From a virus, in UHGV virus genome UHGV-1356964: a DNA stretch of 10,501 nucleotides; one strand, written 5' to 3'. This document shows positions 1 to 10,501 of the stretch, piece after piece (within the stretch, counting starts at the first letter, position 1; each line of letters begins with the position of its first letter). The position numbers and the translations under genes are program-made. The notes beneath the pieces are model-generated. The model saw only the letters and a list, made by a program, of their open reading frames with translations. It did not search any database and was not told the origin of the DNA.

Positions 1-1025
1 GTAAGGAGAAAATCCTGACCGTCGGAAAATATCCGCTTATGACTTTGCAGGAGGCAAGGGATAAAGCATGGACTGCGAGGAAAGAGATCTCGGTTGGCAT
101 CGATCCGGTAAAGGCGAAATAGGCTTCGTCTAACAACAATTCCTTTAGCGCCATTTACAAGGAATGGTACGAGCACAAGAAGCAAGTCTGGTCAGTAGGA
201 TATGCAAATGAACTTGCAAAAATGTTTGATGACGACATTTTACCCATCATCGGCGGTCTTGAAATTCAGGATATTGAGCCGATGCAACTACTGGAAGTAA
301 TCCGCAGATTTGAAGATCGCGGTGCAATGGAGCGAGCAAATAAAGCCCGCAGAAGATGCGGCGAGGTTTTCCGTTACGCTATTGTCACCGGAAGGGCTAA
401 ATATAACCCGGCACCTGACCTTGCAGACGCCATGAAAGGATACCGCAAGAAGAACTTCCCGTTTCTTCCAGCAGACCAGATCCCTGCATTCAACAAAGCA
501 CTGGCAACATTTTCAGGAAGCATCGTATCGCTCATTGCGACCAAAGTTTTACGCTACACAGCCCTAAGAACGAAAGAGCTTCGTTCCATGCAATGGAAGA
601 ACGTCGATTTTGAAAACAGGATTATCACCATCGACGCCAGTGTGATGAAGGGTCGCAAAATTCATGTGGTTCCTATGTCAGACCAGGTGGTTGAACTTCT
701 CACTACGCTAAGCTCAATCACTAAACCAGTATCAGAGTTTGTTTTTGCCGGTCGCAACGATAAGAAGAAGCCAATCTGCGAGAACGCGGTATTACTTGTG
801 ATCAAACAAATCGGCTATGAAGGTCTGGAAAGCGGTCACGGATTCAGGCATGAATTCAGCACGATTATGAACGAGCACGAATGGCCTGCTGACGCGATTG
901 AGGTGCAACTGGCACATGCCAACGGCGGATCTGTGCGCGGGATTTACAACCATGCTCAGTATCTCGATAAGCGCAGAGAAATGATGCAGTGGTGGGCGGA
1001 CTGGCTTGATGGGAAGGTGGAGTGA
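1..1025 (+). pseudogene. int: Tyrosine integrase (P4/IntS-like), 5' end outside window, interrupted by in-frame TAG at 120-122; longest intact ORF is 222-1025
   Basis: The frame starting at position 3 reads KEKILTVGKYPLMTLQEARDKAWTARKEISVGIDPVKAK, then TAG (120-122), then ASSNNNSFSAIYKEWYEHKKQVWSVGYANELAKMFDDD, continuing without a frame change into the 267-aa ORF 222-1025. That ORF carries tyrosine-recombinase hallmarks (HGFRHEF for the H-x-x-R box, LAHANGGSVRGIYNHAQY with the C-terminal Tyr). Integrase-like sequence on both sides of a single stop in one frame indicates a nonsense mutation, or an amber-suppressed gene, not a true gene end. Stop is TGA at 1023-1025. Confidence 0.75.
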
Positions 1026-1306
1026 TCCACCTTAACTATCGAATGACATAAAGCCTTGCAATCCAGTACAAAGCTTTGCGTTTCTCAGTTTTGCCTCAAG
1101 TGGATACAAATACCACCACCTGATGTGGTACATATCATTACATGTAAATAATTATATGATCACGAACTTACTAAAATATAAACATCACAACCCCATACAT
1201 TTATCACCTAAGTGCTTGACAAATGGCAAATGGTTTTGCAATCTTTCTTTAATTAGCATGATGTTCATGCTACTATTTGTAGAATATTTTTCAAATATGG
1301 TGATAT

Positions 1307-1615
1307 ATGTTTAAATACTTGTTTTTTATACTTACCTTTATGGTTAGTAATTCATCAAGCGCAAAGATAAATGAAATAGTATGTGGTTCTCATCTTGTTA
1401 AAGTTAACACATCAAATGCGTCCAAAGTGCATCTAGATGATGTAGAATTTAGCCTTGAAAAAGAATTTTTTAACGAGGCTCGTTCTCTTGATTATATATC
1501 TATTGATAAAGAAAAATTCACTTTAACTGAGTTTTATTCTGGTGATTATAGTATAACAATACAATCACCAGAAACTAAAAAAAGAGATATTATTATGTGC
1601 AAGTTGTTACGTTAA
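1307..1615 (+). CDS. Hypothetical small secreted protein (102 aa, signal-peptide-like N-terminus), AT-rich cargo
   Basis: ATG at 1307 with GGTGA a few nt upstream. N-terminus MFKYLFFILTFMVSNSSSA looks like a cleavable signal peptide, followed by a hydrophilic ~80-aa domain. A 102-codon open frame in ~28% GC DNA is unlikely by chance because stops are frequent there. The ORF converges on and overlaps the stop of the neighbouring - strand gene (1607-1615), which lowers confidence. Confidence 0.35.
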   Translation: MFKYLFFILTFMVSNSSSAKINEIVCGSHLVKVNTSNASKVHLDDVEFSLEKEFFNEARSLDYISIDKEKFTLTEFYSGDYSITIQSPETKKRDIIMCKLLR

Positions 1616-2725
1616 CGCTTTGTTCTTATTTGAAATTGCACATATCATAGCAATAGCCATATAAAACACAGCAAAAAACGGCAGGCTAATTTTTAAAGAT
1701 GATAGCAACATCATTAGCTTTGCCCTTTTTGTTATTTTAATTTTAATTATAAAAACACAATATAATACTATGCATAATACTCCAAATGGAAGACCGAATA
1801 TTGTAATAAAGTTTCCAAATATAGTCATATCATATAACGACTCATAAAATGATGGCGCAGATTCTGACTTACCAATCAAACCATAACCAAAAATATATAA
1901 ATTTTGATTTCCAATAAAATCAAGAATGGTCTCTATCTTTATATTATTGCTACCATCAGCCCCAGATAGAAATAAAACAATCCTGTCATTTACAATATTT
2001 AAAACAGAAAGATACCCAATCACAAATATTGCTATCACTGGGATAATCATCCTAATTCTCATCATGCCAACACATAGCATGAGAAAGCAAAGAAATATTC
2101 CAACAAATGACAATGTAAACGTCATTGAAACGCATGACAGTAAAAACAAATAATCAATCTTTTTATTAATTGCATATCGTAACGTAATTAACCACGCTGT
2201 TATTCCGCAATATACACTTGGTTCTGCAGTTAGCCCTGTTGGCCTAAACCCAACTCCAGTCATCATATTTCTTGATGGTTCACCACCAATTAGCATAGAG
2301 TAGTCAACAATAGAACCAAATAAAAGTTTCGATACTACTTGAATAAATAAAGAGAGTATGAAAACTACTAGCGCTGCATTTATGGATCTCTCTAAAGTAT
2401 CTTTATCCACCCCCTTACATCCAACATATAACAAGTATGACGACACCACCCAAATTATTACTTTAAGCGTCTGTGATAATAATATCTCATTATGCTTTGA
2501 TATATAAACTTGGATAAATGAACTTATTATAACAATAGATACCACCATTATTATAAATAATAATGACTGATACGTCATTTTACTTACACTTTTTGCGTAT
2601 AAAAAAAGGCATGCGAATGGAAATAGGAATAGTTGTACACCATAAACTGTCACCGGAGATGCTAAATCTATAATTACACCAATTACTGCAATAAAAAGGA
2701 AAAAGGCACTCATGTTAACCACCAT
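1607..2725 (-). CDS. Polytopic inner-membrane protein, Wzy/EpsG-like (candidate O-antigen polymerase / serotype-conversion protein)
   Basis: 372-aa ORF with about 10 hydrophobic helix-length segments separated by short loops, one with GGEPSRNMMTGVGFRPTGLTAEPS. Very low GC. It lacks the N-terminal motif I associate with acyltransferase-3 O-acetylases, and its size fits Wzy-type polymerases (350-450 aa). It sits in the int-tailspike slot that P22-like phages use for O-antigen modification genes. The start may be the second ATG (2711-2713), which has GGTGG 5 nt upstream. Function is inferred from topology and context only. Confidence 0.6.
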   Translation of the reverse strand: MVVNMSAFFLFIAVIGVIIDLASPVTVYGVQLFLFPFACLFLYAKSVSKMTYQSLLFIIMVVSIVIISSFIQVYISKHNEILLSQTLKVIIWVVSSYLLYVGCKGVDKDTLERSINAALVVFILSLFIQVVSKLLFGSIVDYSMLIGGEPSRNMMTGVGFRPTGLTAEPSVYCGITAWLITLRYAINKKIDYLFLLSCVSMTFTLSFVGIFLCFLMLCVGMMRIRMIIPVIAIFVIGYLSVLNIVNDRIVLFLSGADGSNNIKIETILDFIGNQNLYIFGYGLIGKSESAPSFYESLYDMTIFGNFITIFGLPFGVLCIVLYCVFIIKIKITKRAKLMMLLSSLKISLPFFAVFYMAIAMICAISNKNKALT

Positions 2726-2742
2726 GATTTTGAATTTGCGAT

Positions 2743-2771
2743 ATTGTACAATGAGCGCCTTTGCTATGCAA
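2743..2771 (-). promoter_or_regulatory. Candidate sigma70 promoter for the Wzy-like gene
   Basis: On the - strand: -35 TTGCAT (reverse complement of 2766-2771), 17-bp spacer, -10 TACAAT (reverse complement of 2743-2748), directly after the tailspike stop and 18-30 nt upstream of the candidate starts. The -10 lies inside a perfect 10-bp palindrome ATTGTACAAT (2743-2752). Confidence 0.3.
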
Positions 2772-2772
2772 T

Positions 2773-4821
2773 TTATAAATATTTCAAGACAAACATCATG
2801 AGCTCATCATATCTTACACCATATCTGTCACCGAAATCAGTTTCGTCTTTGCACCAGAACCCATACTTTTCAGGATTTAACCCATTATTGCGCATTATGA
2901 CGCCAACCGTTTGCGCCCCGACACCAAAATGATAACGCGCGTTACCACCTTTACTTCTGATGCTCTCTTTCAGCTTGTACCTGTAAATACATTTTCTTAT
3001 TTCATTTGCCGCTTGTTTTTCTTTCAATAAAAGATCATCTGAACATCCGCATGGTTCTTTCATTGATTCATCTGATGTAGTTATTACACCTGTGGTAGAA
3101 TATATTGCTGACCATCTTTTTGTTGTATCGCCTAATGCCGTATCTGAGTCACCTTCAGGAGCTAATCTATTATAGCCACTAATAAGAAGGTCATTTTTTG
3201 GGAGCTCTTTTGATACTCCACCATCAGTTGATGTTAATTTAACGCCTCTTGTTCCAGGTATACTTTTTATTTCAATGCCTGCCTCTGATGTTCCTATTAT
3301 CTGTAGATCGGAATTTTTATTTCTACCATCCTGAAATGGAAGTTCAAAAACATTAGATGTAAATCTCCAATCCGTATCAGAATAAAGCTCGGCTGGTGAC
3401 GAGTTATCGCGCTGTATTATAATGGCACCTTTTCCGCTATCTCGTCTCCGACAACCGGCAATGTTTGCTTGGTTGGGATCCATATTTGAGCTAACCAACA
3501 CACCATCAAACTGAGATATGCTTTCGTAATTATTAGCTCCTTGCCGCTGTGCACTTTCACTTATATAAACCCATGCCCAATCAAAATGGTTCTCATAACT
3601 TCCAACGTTCAGGTCAATCTGATACGGACGAGTGCACAACTCGCCAAAAAACCCACGGAAGTGGATATTACCTGCCACTGATGTATCACTGTTCACCGTC
3701 TTAACAATACGTACTGCGCATGGCACGTCTGCAGGCCAATTGCCCAGAGTGATATTCTCGGAGTGGCCACCAAACACGCGCAAAGAGTCGGTAGACTCAA
3801 TCCAAAAACTACAATTTCCCGTGGCATGATGGGGGTTATATATATGTATGCGCGTATTATTATTATCGCCACTGACGCTGCGTTCAAAATAAAACCCACA
3901 GTCTACACGCTCAAAGTTAGGGTTCATAATTGAGTGGTAGTACGAGCCGCTGTTTTCACCTGATACTGTTGGTCCCGGCTTGAATTTCAGTCCGACTTTT
4001 ACTCCCCTTGCACGTGGATTCTCCATTACACAAAATTGCTGTGACACACGCATGGTTGCCTGAGATTCGTCTTCAGGAGCAATGGCGTAGGCAATAACGT
4101 CAGAGTAGTTATCTGGGTTAATTACTACAGGATTGATTATGTGGCAGAAATCATGGCTCATTCTTAAACATGTAATTCCCGAGTCTCCTGCTACGATTGT
4201 TGTACCAGTAAAATCAATATACCGTGTAGATGTAACATCCTGTGTATACGAGCCATCGAACTTCATTACAAGACTTTGTGTTATGCGATATATCGCACCT
4301 ACTCTCCCTGTTAATTTACCAAAAGGTATTCCTTCGAGCCATGCTAATGCTGATAACATAGATGTGGTGTCGTCAACAATCCCATCACCAATTGCCCCAA
4401 ACTCTTCAAATGTTTTAATGGCTGTCGCCCGATGCGCTATCTGATCAATTGTTGAGCCATATTTTGTTAGACTCTGCCTTAGCTGATCAGGATCATACTT
4501 CAGCACGTTTGGAAAATAGAACTGCTGTGCACCATACGCATCATAAACAGCCATAGAATGACCTTGCACCGTAACAAACTTGGCAATCTGTCCGTTATAT
4601 ACAGGGTAACCAGCAGAATTGATAATGATTGGTTGCGAAACAGGAATGTGAGATCCGTCTTCGTTCTCTACATAAACCTGAATCTGGTTTTCAGGATTTA
4701 CCGGGTCAGTATCAATTTTACCGATATAAATTTTGCCATTGGCTACGGCTTTAAAAGAACGCGCCATAGTGAAGAGTTGCGAAGGCATACTCACTACAAC
4801 ATTGGCTGTAATGTCTGTCAT
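2773..4821 (-). CDS. Tailspike protein (P22/Sf6-type head-binding domain, beta-helix-like receptor-binding domain, C-terminal intramolecular-chaperone-like domain)
   Basis: The N-terminus [61 protein letters not shown]...VLKYDPDQ matches, from memory, the conserved head-binding domain of P22-family tailspikes. The central region is Gly/Asn/Ser/Thr/Asp-rich with many aromatics, typical of a beta-helix glycanase. The C-terminus has TSDESMK, fitting the S-D-x-x-x-K Ser/Lys motif of self-cleaving chaperone domains. GGAG lies 8 nt upstream of the ATG at 4819-4821. Confidence 0.93.
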
Positions 4822-4877
4822 TTAATTTGCTCCAGATACAAGGAATCGCCGCAGCGGGACTACGGTGAATTTTGGGC

Positions 4878-4902
4878 ATAAAAAACCCAGCCGAAGCTGG
4901 GT
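4878..4902 (-). terminator. Intrinsic terminator (- strand) upstream of the tailspike gene
   Basis: The - strand transcript would form a 7-bp stem (ACCCAGC / GCUGGGU) with a 4-nt loop, followed by UUUUUAU (reverse complement of + 4878-4884). On the + strand the stem is followed by CGTTGCG, so it is not a + strand terminator. Confidence 0.55.
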
Positions 4903-4953
4903 CGTTGCGTTGGTTATCTGTCAGTAGTTATGTACTGGCTGAAGGATTTGTAC

Positions 4954-4983
4954 AAAAAACCACCTGACGGTGGGTTAATTTTT
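4954..4983. terminator. Hairpin with flanking A and T runs (bidirectional terminator candidate; stronger on - strand)
   Basis: Stem CCACC (4960-4964), loop TGAC, stem GGTGG (4969-4973). On the + strand it is followed by GTTAATTTTT; on the - strand by UUUUUUG (reverse complement of AAAAAA at 4954-4959). The stem is short (5 bp). Confidence 0.45.
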
Positions 4984-5001
4984 GCATTTACCTGGGCCAT
5001 A

Positions 5002-5030
5002 TTGACTACTCATAAAATGAGATCAATATT
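5002..5030 (+). promoter_or_regulatory. Candidate sigma70 promoter for the small basic-protein gene
   Basis: -35 TTGACT (5002-5007), 17-bp spacer, -10 AATATT (5025-5030), about 37 nt upstream of the ATG at 5067. The spacer contains the inverted repeat CTCAT-AAA-ATGAG (5009-5021), a possible operator. The -10 is weak. Confidence 0.3.
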
Positions 5031-5066
5031 TAATCGCCCAATAACGGGTGCATGTTGAGGTATATC

Positions 5067-5246
5067 ATGGCGAAAAAACCAGGTGAAAACACAGGAAAAA
5101 ACGGCGGAATATACCAAGAAGTTGGCCCACGCGGCGGTAAGAAAGACAATTTTGCCACCGTCAAGGACAACGAAAGGCTTCCACCAACAACAAAGCCAGG
5201 TCATGGCTGGGTATTGGATAAGCGAACTCCAGACAGCAAAAAGTAA
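5067..5246 (+). CDS. Small basic Gly/Lys/Pro-rich protein (59 aa), function unknown
   Basis: ATG at 5067 with GAGG 6 nt upstream; the track's 5052 start is probably an upstream in-frame ATG without a ribosome-binding site. Product: MAKKPGENTGKNGGIYQEVGPRGGKKDNFATVKDNERLPPTTKPGHGWVLDKRTPDSKK. A + strand terminator follows immediately (5253-5275). I could not place the family from memory. Confidence 0.6.
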   Translation: MAKKPGENTGKNGGIYQEVGPRGGKKDNFATVKDNERLPPTTKPGHGWVLDKRTPDSKK

Positions 5247-5252
5247 TAATCA

Positions 5253-5275
5253 AGCCGGTTCACTCCGGCTTTTTG
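5253..5275 (+). terminator. Intrinsic terminator after the small basic-protein gene (overlaps the 3' end of the convergent peptidase gene)
   Basis: Stem AGCCGG (5253-5258), 6-nt loop TTCACT, stem CCGGCT (5265-5270), followed by TTTT (5271-5274), 7 nt after the TAA at 5244-5246. On the - strand the same hairpin is followed by a moderately U-rich tract, so it may also serve the convergent gene. Confidence 0.6.
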
Positions 5276-5625
5276 ATATGTTGCTCGCAGAACTCAACAA
5301 GCCTGCTCATTAAGTAGCAGTAAGTCTCGTTGGCTCTTCCTGGTTCAACATCAACACCTACCCTTGAGCAGATATCGAATGCCATGTGAGCGCACTCATG
5401 GGCAATAGTAGATAGTTTGCCATTGAACACGCCTATCACATGCAAAACACCATTCTCGCTACTCATTGTATGAGACGCTCCGTTGGCGTCCGAGTCATGC
5501 ACGTCAACGCCAAGTTTTTGATGCAGGCGTTGCCATTCTGGAAAGTCTCTACAAAACACAATTGTACCGCTCTCAAAGAGCGGAACGAGCATCTTTGGTA
5601 CGTTTCCAATGTTAACTTTTTTCAT
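5260..5625 (-). CDS. Small HEXXH zinc-metallopeptidase-like protein, ImmA/IrrE (DUF955)-like, 121 aa
   Basis: The motif KLSTIAHECAHMAF (x-T-[LI]-A-H-E-x-x-H) is followed about 15-25 residues later by VEPGRANETYCYLMS, which resembles the E-x-x-A-N-x-[FY]-x-x-x-L-[LM] segment after the HEXXH in ImmA/IrrE-type peptidases. AGGA lies 4 nt upstream of the ATG. There is no adjacent helix-turn-helix partner gene. Confidence 0.75.
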   Translation of the reverse strand: MKKVNIGNVPKMLVPLFESGTIVFCRDFPEWQRLHQKLGVDVHDSDANGASHTMSSENGVLHVIGVFNGKLSTIAHECAHMAFDICSRVGVDVEPGRANETYCYLMSRLVEFCEQHIKKPE

Positions 5626-5659
5626 GGTATCCTGCGAAAAACTAAGGAGAGTTAATTAT

Positions 5660-6145
5660 ATGAAAAAATCACTGTTAATTATCCCGCTTCTGCTGGCTGG
5701 GTGCGCAAAAGTAAGCGACTATCAGGCAAGTTGCGAGCAACGCTATCCAAAGCTTAGCGATATGGCTAATTGCCTTGATGCCAGCTTGAAGAACGACTCT
5801 CGCATGGCATCAGCACCAACACCTAAGCTGTATGTCCTTGCTGCGAAGATGCTCGGGCAAGGTGTCGATGAAGGCAAGATAAGTGACACACAGGCAAGAC
5901 TTGAACTTCAGAATCTTTATGTTCAATTACAAAGCCAAGAACAAGCACAACAAATAGCACAAAGCCAAGCATTCCAGCAGGCTTTATTGAATTATCAGGC
6001 TGTAAACACAATGCAAGCGATCGAGCAAAAAGCGCGCCAGCCTGTTATAACTCAACCTTACCCAACACGCGTTGACACATATACAAACTGCAATTCAGGA
6101 TTTGGAAACACGGTAACATGCAACAGTAGCAGTAATATCAGGTAG
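5660..6145 (+). CDS. Lipoprotein (161 aa; lipobox LAGC, Ala at +2, Gln-rich middle region)
   Basis: ATG at 5660 preceded by AAGGAG (5644-5649). N-terminus MKKSLLIIPLLLAGCAKVS is a classical type II signal peptide with lipobox L-A-G-C. The track's longer ORF from 5609 would overlap the divergent peptidase gene start and lacks a ribosome-binding site. The mature protein is Gln/Ala-rich with a Cys-containing C-terminal tail (TNCNSGFGNTVTCNSSSNIR). Confidence 0.8.
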   Translation: MKKSLLIIPLLLAGCAKVSDYQASCEQRYPKLSDMANCLDASLKNDSRMASAPTPKLYVLAAKMLGQGVDEGKISDTQARLELQNLYVQLQSQEQAQQIAQSQAFQQALLNYQAVNTMQAIEQKARQPVITQPYPTRVDTYTNCNSGFGNTVTCNSSSNIR

Positions 6146-6159
6146 TTATATCTTATCTT

Positions 6160-8007
6160 TTATTGCTGTTCTGCTGTAATTTGGCTTGAAAGTATAGGGC
6201 GTATCGCATTTGCAGCATTATTTAGCGCTCTTTCATAGGCTGGTGTTCCTGCTTTGGTGTTTGCCAGACGTAAGAGAGCATTCCTTGCTGCTTTGGACTC
6301 ATACAAGCGCATCATTGCACCGAAACCAGCCTCAAGCCCCATTGATACGCCAAGAGTCGCAGTTGCGCCAATCGTCCTTATCCTGTTGGCTTGCGATTGC
6401 CCCGTCTGAGTTACTACATTTGCGGTGTCTGACCTTGCTGTTTGCTGTAGAACTTCATGAAGAGCATCAAGCTCTTTCATGTGCTTTCCTGAAAAAATAG
6501 TGTTGTAAATTTCACCGCCTGACTGAGATTTCAGCTTATTAACTTCAGTGATGAACTTGGCTGGAGAGTCACCGGCCTTTTCCGCTATTTTGCTGACGTA
6601 AGCTGCACGCATAGCATCTTTCCCTTTATCATCCAGTGCGCTCCAGATTCGTTTCACGTCAGATGGTTTTCTGCTTAATACAACGGTATTTATAAGTTCA
6701 GGACTGGCTTCACTGCTTGCCTTGTTGAGCTTGTTAGCAATGTTTTTATTAAGCACCTTATTATAAACGTTTGCATAATCGGAATTTGCTTTAAGGTATT
6801 TTGCTGCGTCTGATGCACCGAGGTTTTTTGCAACTGCGTTACGAAGATCTTTTGACATTGCATTCTCTACCATATTGGTAGCTGCTTTTGCCTGGTTGGG
6901 GAAGACCATAGCATCTCCCTGAACATTAGATCTAAATGCTGTTCTGTGCTGACGCAAGAGATCAAACGTAACATCCAAATCAGTTGCAGGGTTTGCTAAT
7001 TCTTCACGTAGGTTACGCAAGGATGTAAGCAGGCTTTGATTGGCAGACGTCCCAAGCCGTTCCTGTCTTGCGATCGCTGTATTCAGAGCATTCATGGTAT
7101 TTGTGGTATCAACTGCGGCATTACCCATTTTATTGGTAACGTCATTGATAACAGCGCCAGCGGCATCCTTCCGTCCCCTTAACGTGGTGGTCAGAGATTT
7201 CACCACATCATCCGGGTTGTACTCACCAAAACGGTCAAAATAATTACTTACCAACTTACTACGCGTTGCATATTGCTCCGCTCGCTTTGAGCCTGTCCCG
7301 AGCAAAGCCCCCTCGGCATCCTGAGTTAGGCCGCGAGTGAAAGCATTTTTCGGCGGGATAACATCAGATGTCATTGGTGTCACGCCCATCGATTCTGATG
7401 TGGCAATTTTCTTCGCCACTTCTGGCGCAATATCACCTTTTATAGCCGTTATTCCACGCCCTATTCCCTTTGCTGCTGCGGAAAGAACACCCTGAGTGGC
7501 AAGGTTAACTCCGGCATTTTTAGCTGCATTTTGTGCGAAATCGCCTTTCTGATTTGTGGCCTCTGCCAGTGAGCCAATAGCCATGCTTCCTGCCGTTCCA
7601 ACTCCTGGAACTAAATACCCACCAATTGTTTCACCGGCTTGCGCGTAAGGGTCTGTCGGTCGATCGACAGGGCGATAAACATCATCCAAAACCTTGGGGC
7701 CACCAAGCCCCTGGCTGATTGCATTAATCAGGCTTGCGCCGCCCTGTAATACGTCGAATGGTATATTTACCAGACCACGACCTGCCTGTTCTGCAATTTG
7801 CCCTGCACTTTGACCACCAGTGAGCCAATCGCCAGCTTGTTGCATCAATGAAGGTTCTTCACGTGCTGGTTCATTATTGGCCTGATTAACTGTTTGTTGC
7901 TGAACAGCCTGACCAGCAAAATACTCATCAATGGCGGTGCCAATATCTTCCGTGCTCGTACCATCAGGAAAGGTAAATGTCTTACCGTTTGCAGTTACTT
8001 TCATCAT
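6160..8007 (-). CDS. Ejection (DNA-injection) protein, P22 gp16-like
   Basis: 615-aa ORF, last gene of a tightly packed - strand operon. Its start overlaps the stop of the upstream gene (ATGATGA at 8001-8007). Size and position match P22 gene 16 (609 aa); composition is Ala/Gly/Asn/Thr-rich as expected for ejection proteins. The assignment is by synteny and size, not sequence identity. Confidence 0.88.
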
Positions 8008-9410
8008 TCCACCGTAAATTGAATGCCTGATTTTGATGTATATGATCCAACCTGATTCCGTGGTTCTCCTGAAGGTGTCGAATCTTGTGCTGGCGCTGCG
8101 TCAGTATTCATTGACATATACCGCTTAACGGCACTCCCCAATGATTCACCTTTTTTAACATCCAACCCCAATATCTGACCGCCATTACGCGATTGTCCTG
8201 GGTTGCCATTCGCGCTCATCCACTCGGCTTTAAACTCATTAAACTGCGCGTTTCGTCGCTCAAGGTTTGCCATAGCATCAAGCCATCTTGCGACCGTCTC
8301 AGGGTTATCCATGTCAGTTGGTGCACCCTGCCGAACGATCTCAACATCTTTATCCGTTGCGGGGCCGGGAGGTAGGAATTTAAGAACCTGACTGTTAACA
8401 AGGGCATTTTGGCGAATGCGCAAATCACGCAATGTCGTATCGCTTCCGGTAAGTTTTGCGAACATGTTCTGTGCGTTACCGAACAAACCTGTCGTTGGTT
8501 TTTCTGCTCTGAACTGTTGAGCAAGCGCACTCATAGAATTGGCTGAGTTTGATGATGCTGTGGCATTGTTTACAGCCGTCTCGATGCCTTTTTCCATGTT
8601 TACTGACAGCTTAGGTGCTTCGCTAATCAACTGCTGAGCCTTTTCCTGCGCTTGCTGCATCTTAAACCCGAACTCTTGCTGATCCAGAGCCAAGCGTTGT
8701 GCTGCGATATTGTGCCCAGTCATTGCTGACTGATAGGAAAGGTTTTGCCCTCTCGCCTGAAGTGCCTCGCCAGCCTGATTGCTGCGGATTGTCTCTGCCA
8801 GTCTGCCTCGGTCAATTTCACGACCAGCCATTTTGTCCTGAACATTGAAGTAATCAATCGGACCAAGAGCAGCCATCCCAAGGTGATCAACAAACTCACC
8901 AAATCCTGAAGGATTCTGCTGATACATCTGAGCAACGCTGTTAGGGTCAACACCGACGCGAGTCAGTTCCTTGGCGTTGTTTTGCAGCCATGATTGCATT
9001 GCTTCTGGAGACGATGACGCAAGGCGTGCGCCAGCCGCTAAGGTGCCGATAGAATTACGCTGGTCTTCATCAATGAATCCCATGCCTTTACGAACGGATT
9101 CAATCTGGTCTGGATATTGAGTAGCCAACTGACGCAAAGCACCGCGATCACCAGACGCATAAGCATTAGCGTACGCCTGCTGAAATTCTTTCTGTCGCTG
9201 AGCCTGCTTTTCCTGCTGAAACACCCCTGCAATACCTGAAAGACCTTGCAAAGCAGTCAGCCCAACATTGTTAGCGCCTGAACGCTCAATATCATTGTTC
9301 TGCCTGATAAGCTGAAGCGTATTGCCGATGTCATTTACGCTCGGAGCGTTTGAGTTGACGCCGCCGATACCAGCTAACAATCCGCCATTTGATCCTTGCC
9401 AAGTAGCCAT
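8004..9410 (-). CDS. Ejection protein, P22 gp20-like
   Basis: 468-aa ORF between the gp7-like and gp16-like genes; size matches P22 gene 20 (471 aa). GGGG lies about 7 nt upstream of the ATG, and the stop overlaps the downstream gene's start (translational coupling). Confidence 0.88.
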
Positions 9411-10114: not shown

Positions 10115-10501
10115 CTATCTCCCGTGATTCAGGAAGTCGATTAGTTCTTCGCGTGTGGCGCTGTAAAAAGTCACGTCATCCACGCCTTTAAAGTATTTCT
10201 TGATGGTTCCGACACGCTTAAGGCCAATCATTGCGCAGTAAATCTGCCCGTGGCGGAATTTGCGTGCGGCGAACGATGTGACGCACTGAACGGTGGTGTT
10301 AGTCAGAATGTATCGCCAGAACGCCAGCCCGATTTCCTTGCTGAAGCCGCGAATCTCTGGCAGGTACATGGCGTGGCAATCGAATGTCAGCGGCTGAATC
10401 TCCTGATAGTAAACAATTCCGCCGAACTGCCCGTGCACGTTCACCTCAAAGTAACGGCATTCAGGCTTGTAGTCGTATCCATCACCGTTGTTGCTCCCGG
10501 C
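10115..10501 (-). CDS. P22 gene-14-like protein, 3' portion (5' end beyond window)
   Basis: The reading frame is open from the window edge (10501) down to TAG at 10115-10117. The track's start at 10444 is a GTG, and the frame stays open upstream of it, so the gene most likely starts outside the window. Its position immediately upstream of the gp7-like gene corresponds to gene 14 in the P22 order 26-14-7-20-16. Assignment is by synteny. Confidence 0.75.
   Translation of the reverse strand, partial: AGSNNGDGYDYKPECRYFEVNVHGQFGGIVYYQEIQPLTFDCHAMYLPEIRGFSKEIGLAFWRYILTNTTVQCVTSFAARKFRHGQIYCAMIGLKRVGTIKKYFKGVDDVTFYSATREELIDFLNHGR

Follow-up and report, generated by a model that had tools for sequence, protein, structure and literature searches.

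The window, that is, the whole 10,501-nt stretch of DNA analyzed here, opens inside a plus-strand gene that ends with its native TGA at 1023-1025. Over positions 1-1025, it shares 95-98% nucleotide identity with intS and with the integrase genes of Sf6, HK620, CUS-3 and HK633, and the region matches genes annotated as "prophage integrase IntS" in more than 2,400 complete E. coli genomes. By homology, we assign the gene to the IntS-type tyrosine integrases (Sf6/HK620/KplE1 family) of P22-like E. coli prophages. Annotated homologues place the intS start 133 nt 5' of window position 1 in a gene of 385 codons; these first 133 nt and attL fall outside the window, and both were deduced from sister loci. 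The translation of positions 3-1025 (+) reads GIDPVKAK, a stop and then ASSNNNSFSAIYKEWYEHKK, the stop being the only internal one, a TAG at 120-122. Because the window opens 133 nt inside the gene, this TAG corresponds to codon 85 of 385. The earlier note had described an integrase-like frame that continues on both sides of an in-frame amber codon; we reproduced the quoted translation exactly and found integrase homology both 5' and 3' of the TAG. The lesion is a single A to T transversion at position 120 within a run of five A residues, which changes GAAAAAGG to GAAATAGG. Since the stop amounts to a single-base difference from a known gene, chance is not in question.

The position of the stop relative to the domains of the protein was examined using Pfam and PDB. 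In Sf6 Int, Pfam identifies Arm-DNA-bind_3 at residues 2-86, Phage_int_M at 93-188 and Phage_integrase at 199-365. Window positions 1-119 (+) encode the 3' part of the arm-type DNA-binding domain (PF13356), from the second position of codon 45 to codon 84, and align without gaps to codons 45-84 of intS from Sf6 and E. coli; codons 1-44 precede the window. The remainder of the integrase frame (123-1025, +; codons 86-385 plus TGA) covers the linker, the central core-binding domain and the catalytic domain. Within it, the longest open reading frame 3' of the stop starts at Met119 (222-1025, +; 267 aa) and matches PF22022 (E = 5.7e-21) as well as PF00589 (E = 7.6e-40, profile positions 2-170 of 172). 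Structures exist for both sides of the stop: 3JU0 (residues 2-89) and 3JTZ (residues 2-78) represent N-terminal domains, while 2KJ8, deposited as "putative prophage CPS-53 integrase", represents the central domain (residues 87-197) and differs at 2 of 111 aligned residues from the integrase of the sister prophage L013, to which the window integrase is identical except at codon 85. Judged from these alignments, the stop lies almost exactly on the experimentally defined boundary between the arm-binding and the core-binding domain, in agreement with the claim that it parts the N-terminal domain from everything that follows. Reading by eye gave TALR(234), GRK(264), H(324)GFR(327), LAH(350) and GIY(360) as candidate motifs for the catalytic R-K-H-R-H-Y residues, and each of the residues concerned (R234, K264, H324-x-x-R327, H350 and Y360) is the same as in the intact sister integrase. 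The gene is thus by descent an IntS/P4-like heterobivalent tyrosine integrase whose three-domain frame is interrupted by the TAG at codon 85, which makes the present sequence a pseudogene or null allele.

Alignment to intact homologues, which had been proposed as a means of identifying the ancestral codon, gave AAG (Lys). This codon is found opposite the TAG in Sf6 and three E. coli homologues and in 21 of the 21 fetched loci that span the site. Among 120 protein homologues (81-98% identity), column 85 is occupied by K in 102, by R in the other 18 and by a stop in none, and residue 85 is the sole window residue missing from all 120. The nucleotide comparison gave the same picture: position 120 is the only base in 1-1025 that is absent from all eight homologues compared, the remaining differences from these eight being shared polymorphisms. 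As a positive control, a 30-mer carrying the AAG was found as an exact match in 1,751 complete E. coli genomes. The corresponding TAG sequences (two 30-mers and a 59-mer) matched no complete E. coli genome and no phage record, and an exact scan with a TAG 31-mer found no match in GTDB species representatives, IMG/VR or JGI metagenome contigs. The TAG at codon 85 is therefore private to this single sequence.

Sister prophages were located through an exact look-up of the tailspike product. Two of them cover the whole window without gaps, L013 (GCA_049866165.1) at 99.79% identity with 22 mismatches and L014 at 99.86%. Five further contigs, each covering only part of the window, are 99.9-100% identical to it. 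Both L013 and L014 carry a called 385-aa integrase adjoining yfdC and mlaA. Within int, the window differs from these two sisters at 12 positions, 11 of which are synonymous; the twelfth is A120T, so that K85 to stop is the only protein difference between the window integrase and the sister integrase over all visible codons. From 558 to 8330, the window shows no difference from L013 or L014, and in its entire length only two bases, T120 and A8346, are seen in no related locus. The latter is a synonymous GAC to GAT change in codon 355 of gp20.

Among the remaining differences, 10 of the 11 synonymous changes in int cluster within 169 nt (389-557), and a second patch, at 10265-10354 in the gp14-like gene, has eight differences from the sisters within 90 nt, among them I50V. 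The differences in these patches are mostly synonymous. Because nearly all of the variant bases occur in other alleles, both patches look like short recombination tracts rather than point mutations.

The late genes, which lie on the minus strand, comprise the gp14-like gene, gp7, gp20, gp16 and a tailspike gene with a P22 head-binding domain. All of them are open and equal in length to those of the sisters. Candidate lesions elsewhere were considered and dismissed: the gp14-like gene at 10115-10501, which appears truncated in the list of open reading frames (109 aa), has a frame that is open to the window edge, and the length differences of 372 versus 368 aa and 178 versus 161 aa reflect the choice of start codon, with no mismatches to the sisters there. 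The absence of indels relative to the sisters over 10.5 kb bears out the earlier suggestion of recent decay in an otherwise intact window. Relatives at 99.8-99.9% identity carry AAG and a 385-aa product, and because nothing else in the 10.5 kb has decayed, the event appears very recent. A long-standing pseudogene is ruled out, given that there is no second lesion and that the protein otherwise equals that of an intact sister.

A singleton of this kind raises the question of whether T120 is real. If it were a sequencing or assembly error, the true base would be A and the integrase intact. This reading draws on the occurrence of T120 in no other sequence of any collection searched, on its being one of just two private bases in 10.5 kb and on its location within the run of five A residues. 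As a rule, however, errors in homopolymers are insertions or deletions, so an A to T substitution would be an untypical one. In addition, no GATC or CCWGG methylation motif lies over the site, the assembly appears accurate, with neither indels nor any other aberrant change relative to the sisters, and real, independent nonsense and frameshift alleles of intS exist in other genomes. We therefore regard an error as unlikely, though it deserves to be kept in mind.

The explanation that we consider probable is a very recent, strain-private A to T null mutation, K85amber, which leaves the prophage defective in excision. Unless the host suppresses amber codons, translation would stop after an 84-residue arm-binding fragment, and the core-binding and catalytic domains would not be made. 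Lacking these, the prophage should be unable to perform Int/RDF-dependent excision unless a related integrase were supplied in trans. "Excision-defective and locked in" was one of several readings offered in the earlier note, and it is the best of them, based on our analysis of what the stop leaves, namely the arm fragment alone, and on the requirements described for the family.

These requirements are known from KplE1, which has one common recombination module with HK620, Sf6 and CUS-3 (PMC2951348). The N-terminal domain of IntS binds arm sites and is needed for intasome assembly, and excision of the KplE1/HK620/Sf6 module requires IntS together with the RDF TorI (PMC2951348). IntS also represses its own promoter via sites overlapping attL, and its level is normally kept low (PMC2951348). 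The proposal that a tRNA gene and attL should lie directly upstream of the window holds by comparison with the sister loci, in which some 160 nt separate the end of argW, encoding tRNA-Arg(CCU), from the int ATG, so that argW ends about 295 nt before window position 1. At its 3' end, argW of the sisters includes the 16-nt core CTGCAGGGGACACCAT; this sequence is the annotated attP core of Sf6 and has also been described for KplE1 (PMC2951348). An argW-adjacent int whose promoter is overlapped by attL is found in both sisters (L013 and L014) and in the related loci L001, L003 and L005-L009. The closest known system is IntS of KplE1 (CPS-53) in E. coli K-12 with its Sf6/HK620/CUS-3 orthologues, which are argW-specific and possess a DUF4102/Arm-DNA-bind_3 N-terminus. 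The window gene resembles this group in its three-domain architecture and, through its sisters, in the argW attL core; in contrast to it, the window copy carries AAG to TAG at codon 85 and, as written, encodes only the 84-residue arm-binding domain.

A knockout presupposes that the amber codon is not decoded. We considered that a supE- or supF-type suppressor, or near-cognate decoding, might yield full-length Int with Gln, Tyr, Lys or a similar residue at position 85. The frame 3' of the stop indeed equals an intact sister integrase in protein sequence, but this is equally expected from a fresh knockout. Residue 85 lies between two domains, and the protein might tolerate a substitution there, yet the position is K or R only in the 120 homologues. 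Basal UAG read-through is low in E. coli. Little protein may suffice, given that IntS is autoregulated to a low level (PMC2951348); on the other hand, the stop is conserved in none of the 21 loci, 120 proteins and 1,751 E. coli genomes. Taken together, these points make read-through very improbable. Programmed recoding is excluded, since the stop is conserved nowhere among the relatives.

The amber codon could also be bypassed by splitting the protein. The earlier note had raised the possibility of a truncated integrase made from the ATG at 222. This is indeed the first in-frame ATG, GTG or TTG after the stop and opens the 267-aa frame, in which the catalytic domain is intact; what found no support is the notion of a useful enzyme, as the product would be missing its arm domain along with 32 central-domain residues. 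A start at Met119 removes residues 87-118 of the domain defined by 2KJ8 (87-197) and 27 of the 96 Phage_int_M profile positions, and a start at Met139 (ATG 282) removes still more of the central domain, even though gene callers start a 247-aa product at the codon equivalent to ATG 282 in other disrupted loci. ATG 222 sits 99 nt after the stop, and the 20 nt before it contain no Shine-Dalgarno-like purine run, which is a weak argument by itself because no strong one precedes the native int start either. The two pieces might also cooperate, as the 84-aa fragment matches a self-folding domain (PDB 3JTZ and 3JU0). In this family, however, it is arm binding covalently joined to the catalytic core that assembles the intasome (PMC2951348), and no homologue keeps a split arrangement as a conserved state. 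That an integrase initiated at ATG 222 or ATG 282, with or without the separate arm domain, still recombines is thus hardly credible.

Returning to K85amber as a null mutation, its consequences for the phage would depend on the 75% of the prophage that lies outside the window, and the following predictions are therefore conditional on inducibility. P22 Δint prophages are locked in and replicate in situ (PMC8575938), and absent or late excision, as in Δint or Δxis mutants or upon delayed expression of int-xis, lowers phage titres and raises lateral transduction to a high level (PMC8575938). An otherwise inducible prophage would be expected to behave as P22 Δint does, with in situ replication, few viable phage and strong lateral transduction. 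Because the late operon points toward int and argW, headful packaging in situ would run from the late operon through int and argW and enter yfdC-mlaA-fadL. The likeness to laboratory P22 Δint and Δxis strains lies in a P22-like headful-packaging prophage without integrase. The differences are that the lesion here is a natural point mutation and that the integrase is of the IntS/Sf6 type at argW, while P22 Int acts at thrW; the shared phenotype is an expectation. Amber mutants in a heterobivalent tyrosine integrase have long existed in the form of the lambda int ambers, whose phenotype is conditional on a suppressor host. Those were selected in the laboratory, whereas the window allele was found in a sequence. 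Excision might be leaky, since IntS of KplE1 acts at low concentration and some low natural UAG read-through is possible.

The truncated product might itself have an effect. Because the 84 residues correspond to an independently folding domain and IntS represses itself at attL, the fragment might persist as a repressor or dominant-negative factor. In an extended scenario, which we put forward as a long shot, free arm domain made from the autoregulated intS promoter would occupy the P' arm sites overlapping PintS and attL, repress the locus and act in a dominant-negative manner on incoming Sf6/HK620-type integrases, while the locked-in, inducible prophage would stably retain a Wzy-like O-antigen gene and launch lateral transduction of the yfdC-mlaA-fadL side.

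Disruption of intS is not restricted to the window. In a small set of loci fetched from E. coli genomes and metagenome contigs, we found a nonsense mutation at W376 (L001, NZ_OZ197100), a 1-nt deletion at nt 346 (L020, SRR30408954), an IS1 junction at about nt 280 (L004, ERR15405303), a 5' deletion to nt 386 (L021) and a 2-nt indel near the 3' end (L025). Strains 88-3493 and GF3-3 (L011 and L012) carry a truncation at nt 283 (about codon 94) associated with ISEc46, an IS200/IS605 element with TnpB, and two remnants (L028 and L031) retain only the last 84 nt of the gene. The sample is biased, as some loci were retrieved through their truncated products; exact look-ups of the 267-aa and 247-aa products encoded after the stop brought up only other integrases with disruptions of their own, namely an IS1 cut, a 1-nt deletion and a 5' deletion. 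These loci show that integrase loss at argW is common in E. coli. They share with the window the inactivation of the same gene at the same chromosomal site; unlike them, the window carries an independent lesion and 9.5 kb of intact neighboring phage genes, while several of the others are deletion remnants. Because other genomes carry independent intS lesions, K85amber is an ordinary event: although this particular allele has no earlier record, events of its kind are well known.

For annotation, the consequence is that the gene should be recorded as an intS pseudogene (K85 amber) in a prophage predicted to be excision-defective unless a helper provides integrase. The importance beyond annotation is small, as this is one more case of the frequent loss of integrase from argW prophages in E. 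coli. Provided that T120 is genuine and that the remaining prophage can be induced, the strain would represent a natural counterpart of P22 Δint and could be used to gauge lateral transduction driven by a naturally locked-in P22-like prophage. We can only speculate that the prophage is becoming a fixed conversion element; the gene adjacent to int may encode a Wzy-like O-antigen polymerase.

This gene belongs to an AT-rich insert (about 31% GC; window 1100-2770) of two genes between int and the tailspike gene, with open reading frames at 1307-1615 (+) and 1607-2725 (-). Neither has a significant match in Pfam, PHROGs, NCBIfam or PADLOC. The 368/372-aa product is a polytopic membrane protein in which about 10 segments are hydrophobic. 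Its homologues form only 13 clusters; UniRef names one of these, from Salmonella bongori and 57% identical, "O-antigen polymerase". The N-terminus of the 102-aa product resembles a signal peptide. In relatives, the slot between int and the tailspike gene is occupied by O-antigen-modifying genes (oac, GT2 and acetyltransferases). From these sequence features, the AT-rich pair may form a Wzy-like seroconversion module.

Two further observations concern the context of the prophage. The segment between the tailspike gene and gp16 (4822-6159) is devoid of mnt/arc/ant (immI) and sieA, which are present in many related prophages (L008 and L022-L031), and holds instead three small genes of unassigned function (PHROG 3202, 1365 and 6067). 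In E. coli MLI104K1 (L010, NZ_CP116923.1, 1394719-1400354), we found a prophage remnant with an intact intS, both AT-rich genes and the same tailspike type; the remnant is 99.0% identical to window 1-4773 and ends at an IS1 beside a truncated dsdX. This remnant implies that the block of int, membrane-protein and tailspike genes can outlast deletion of the remaining phage.
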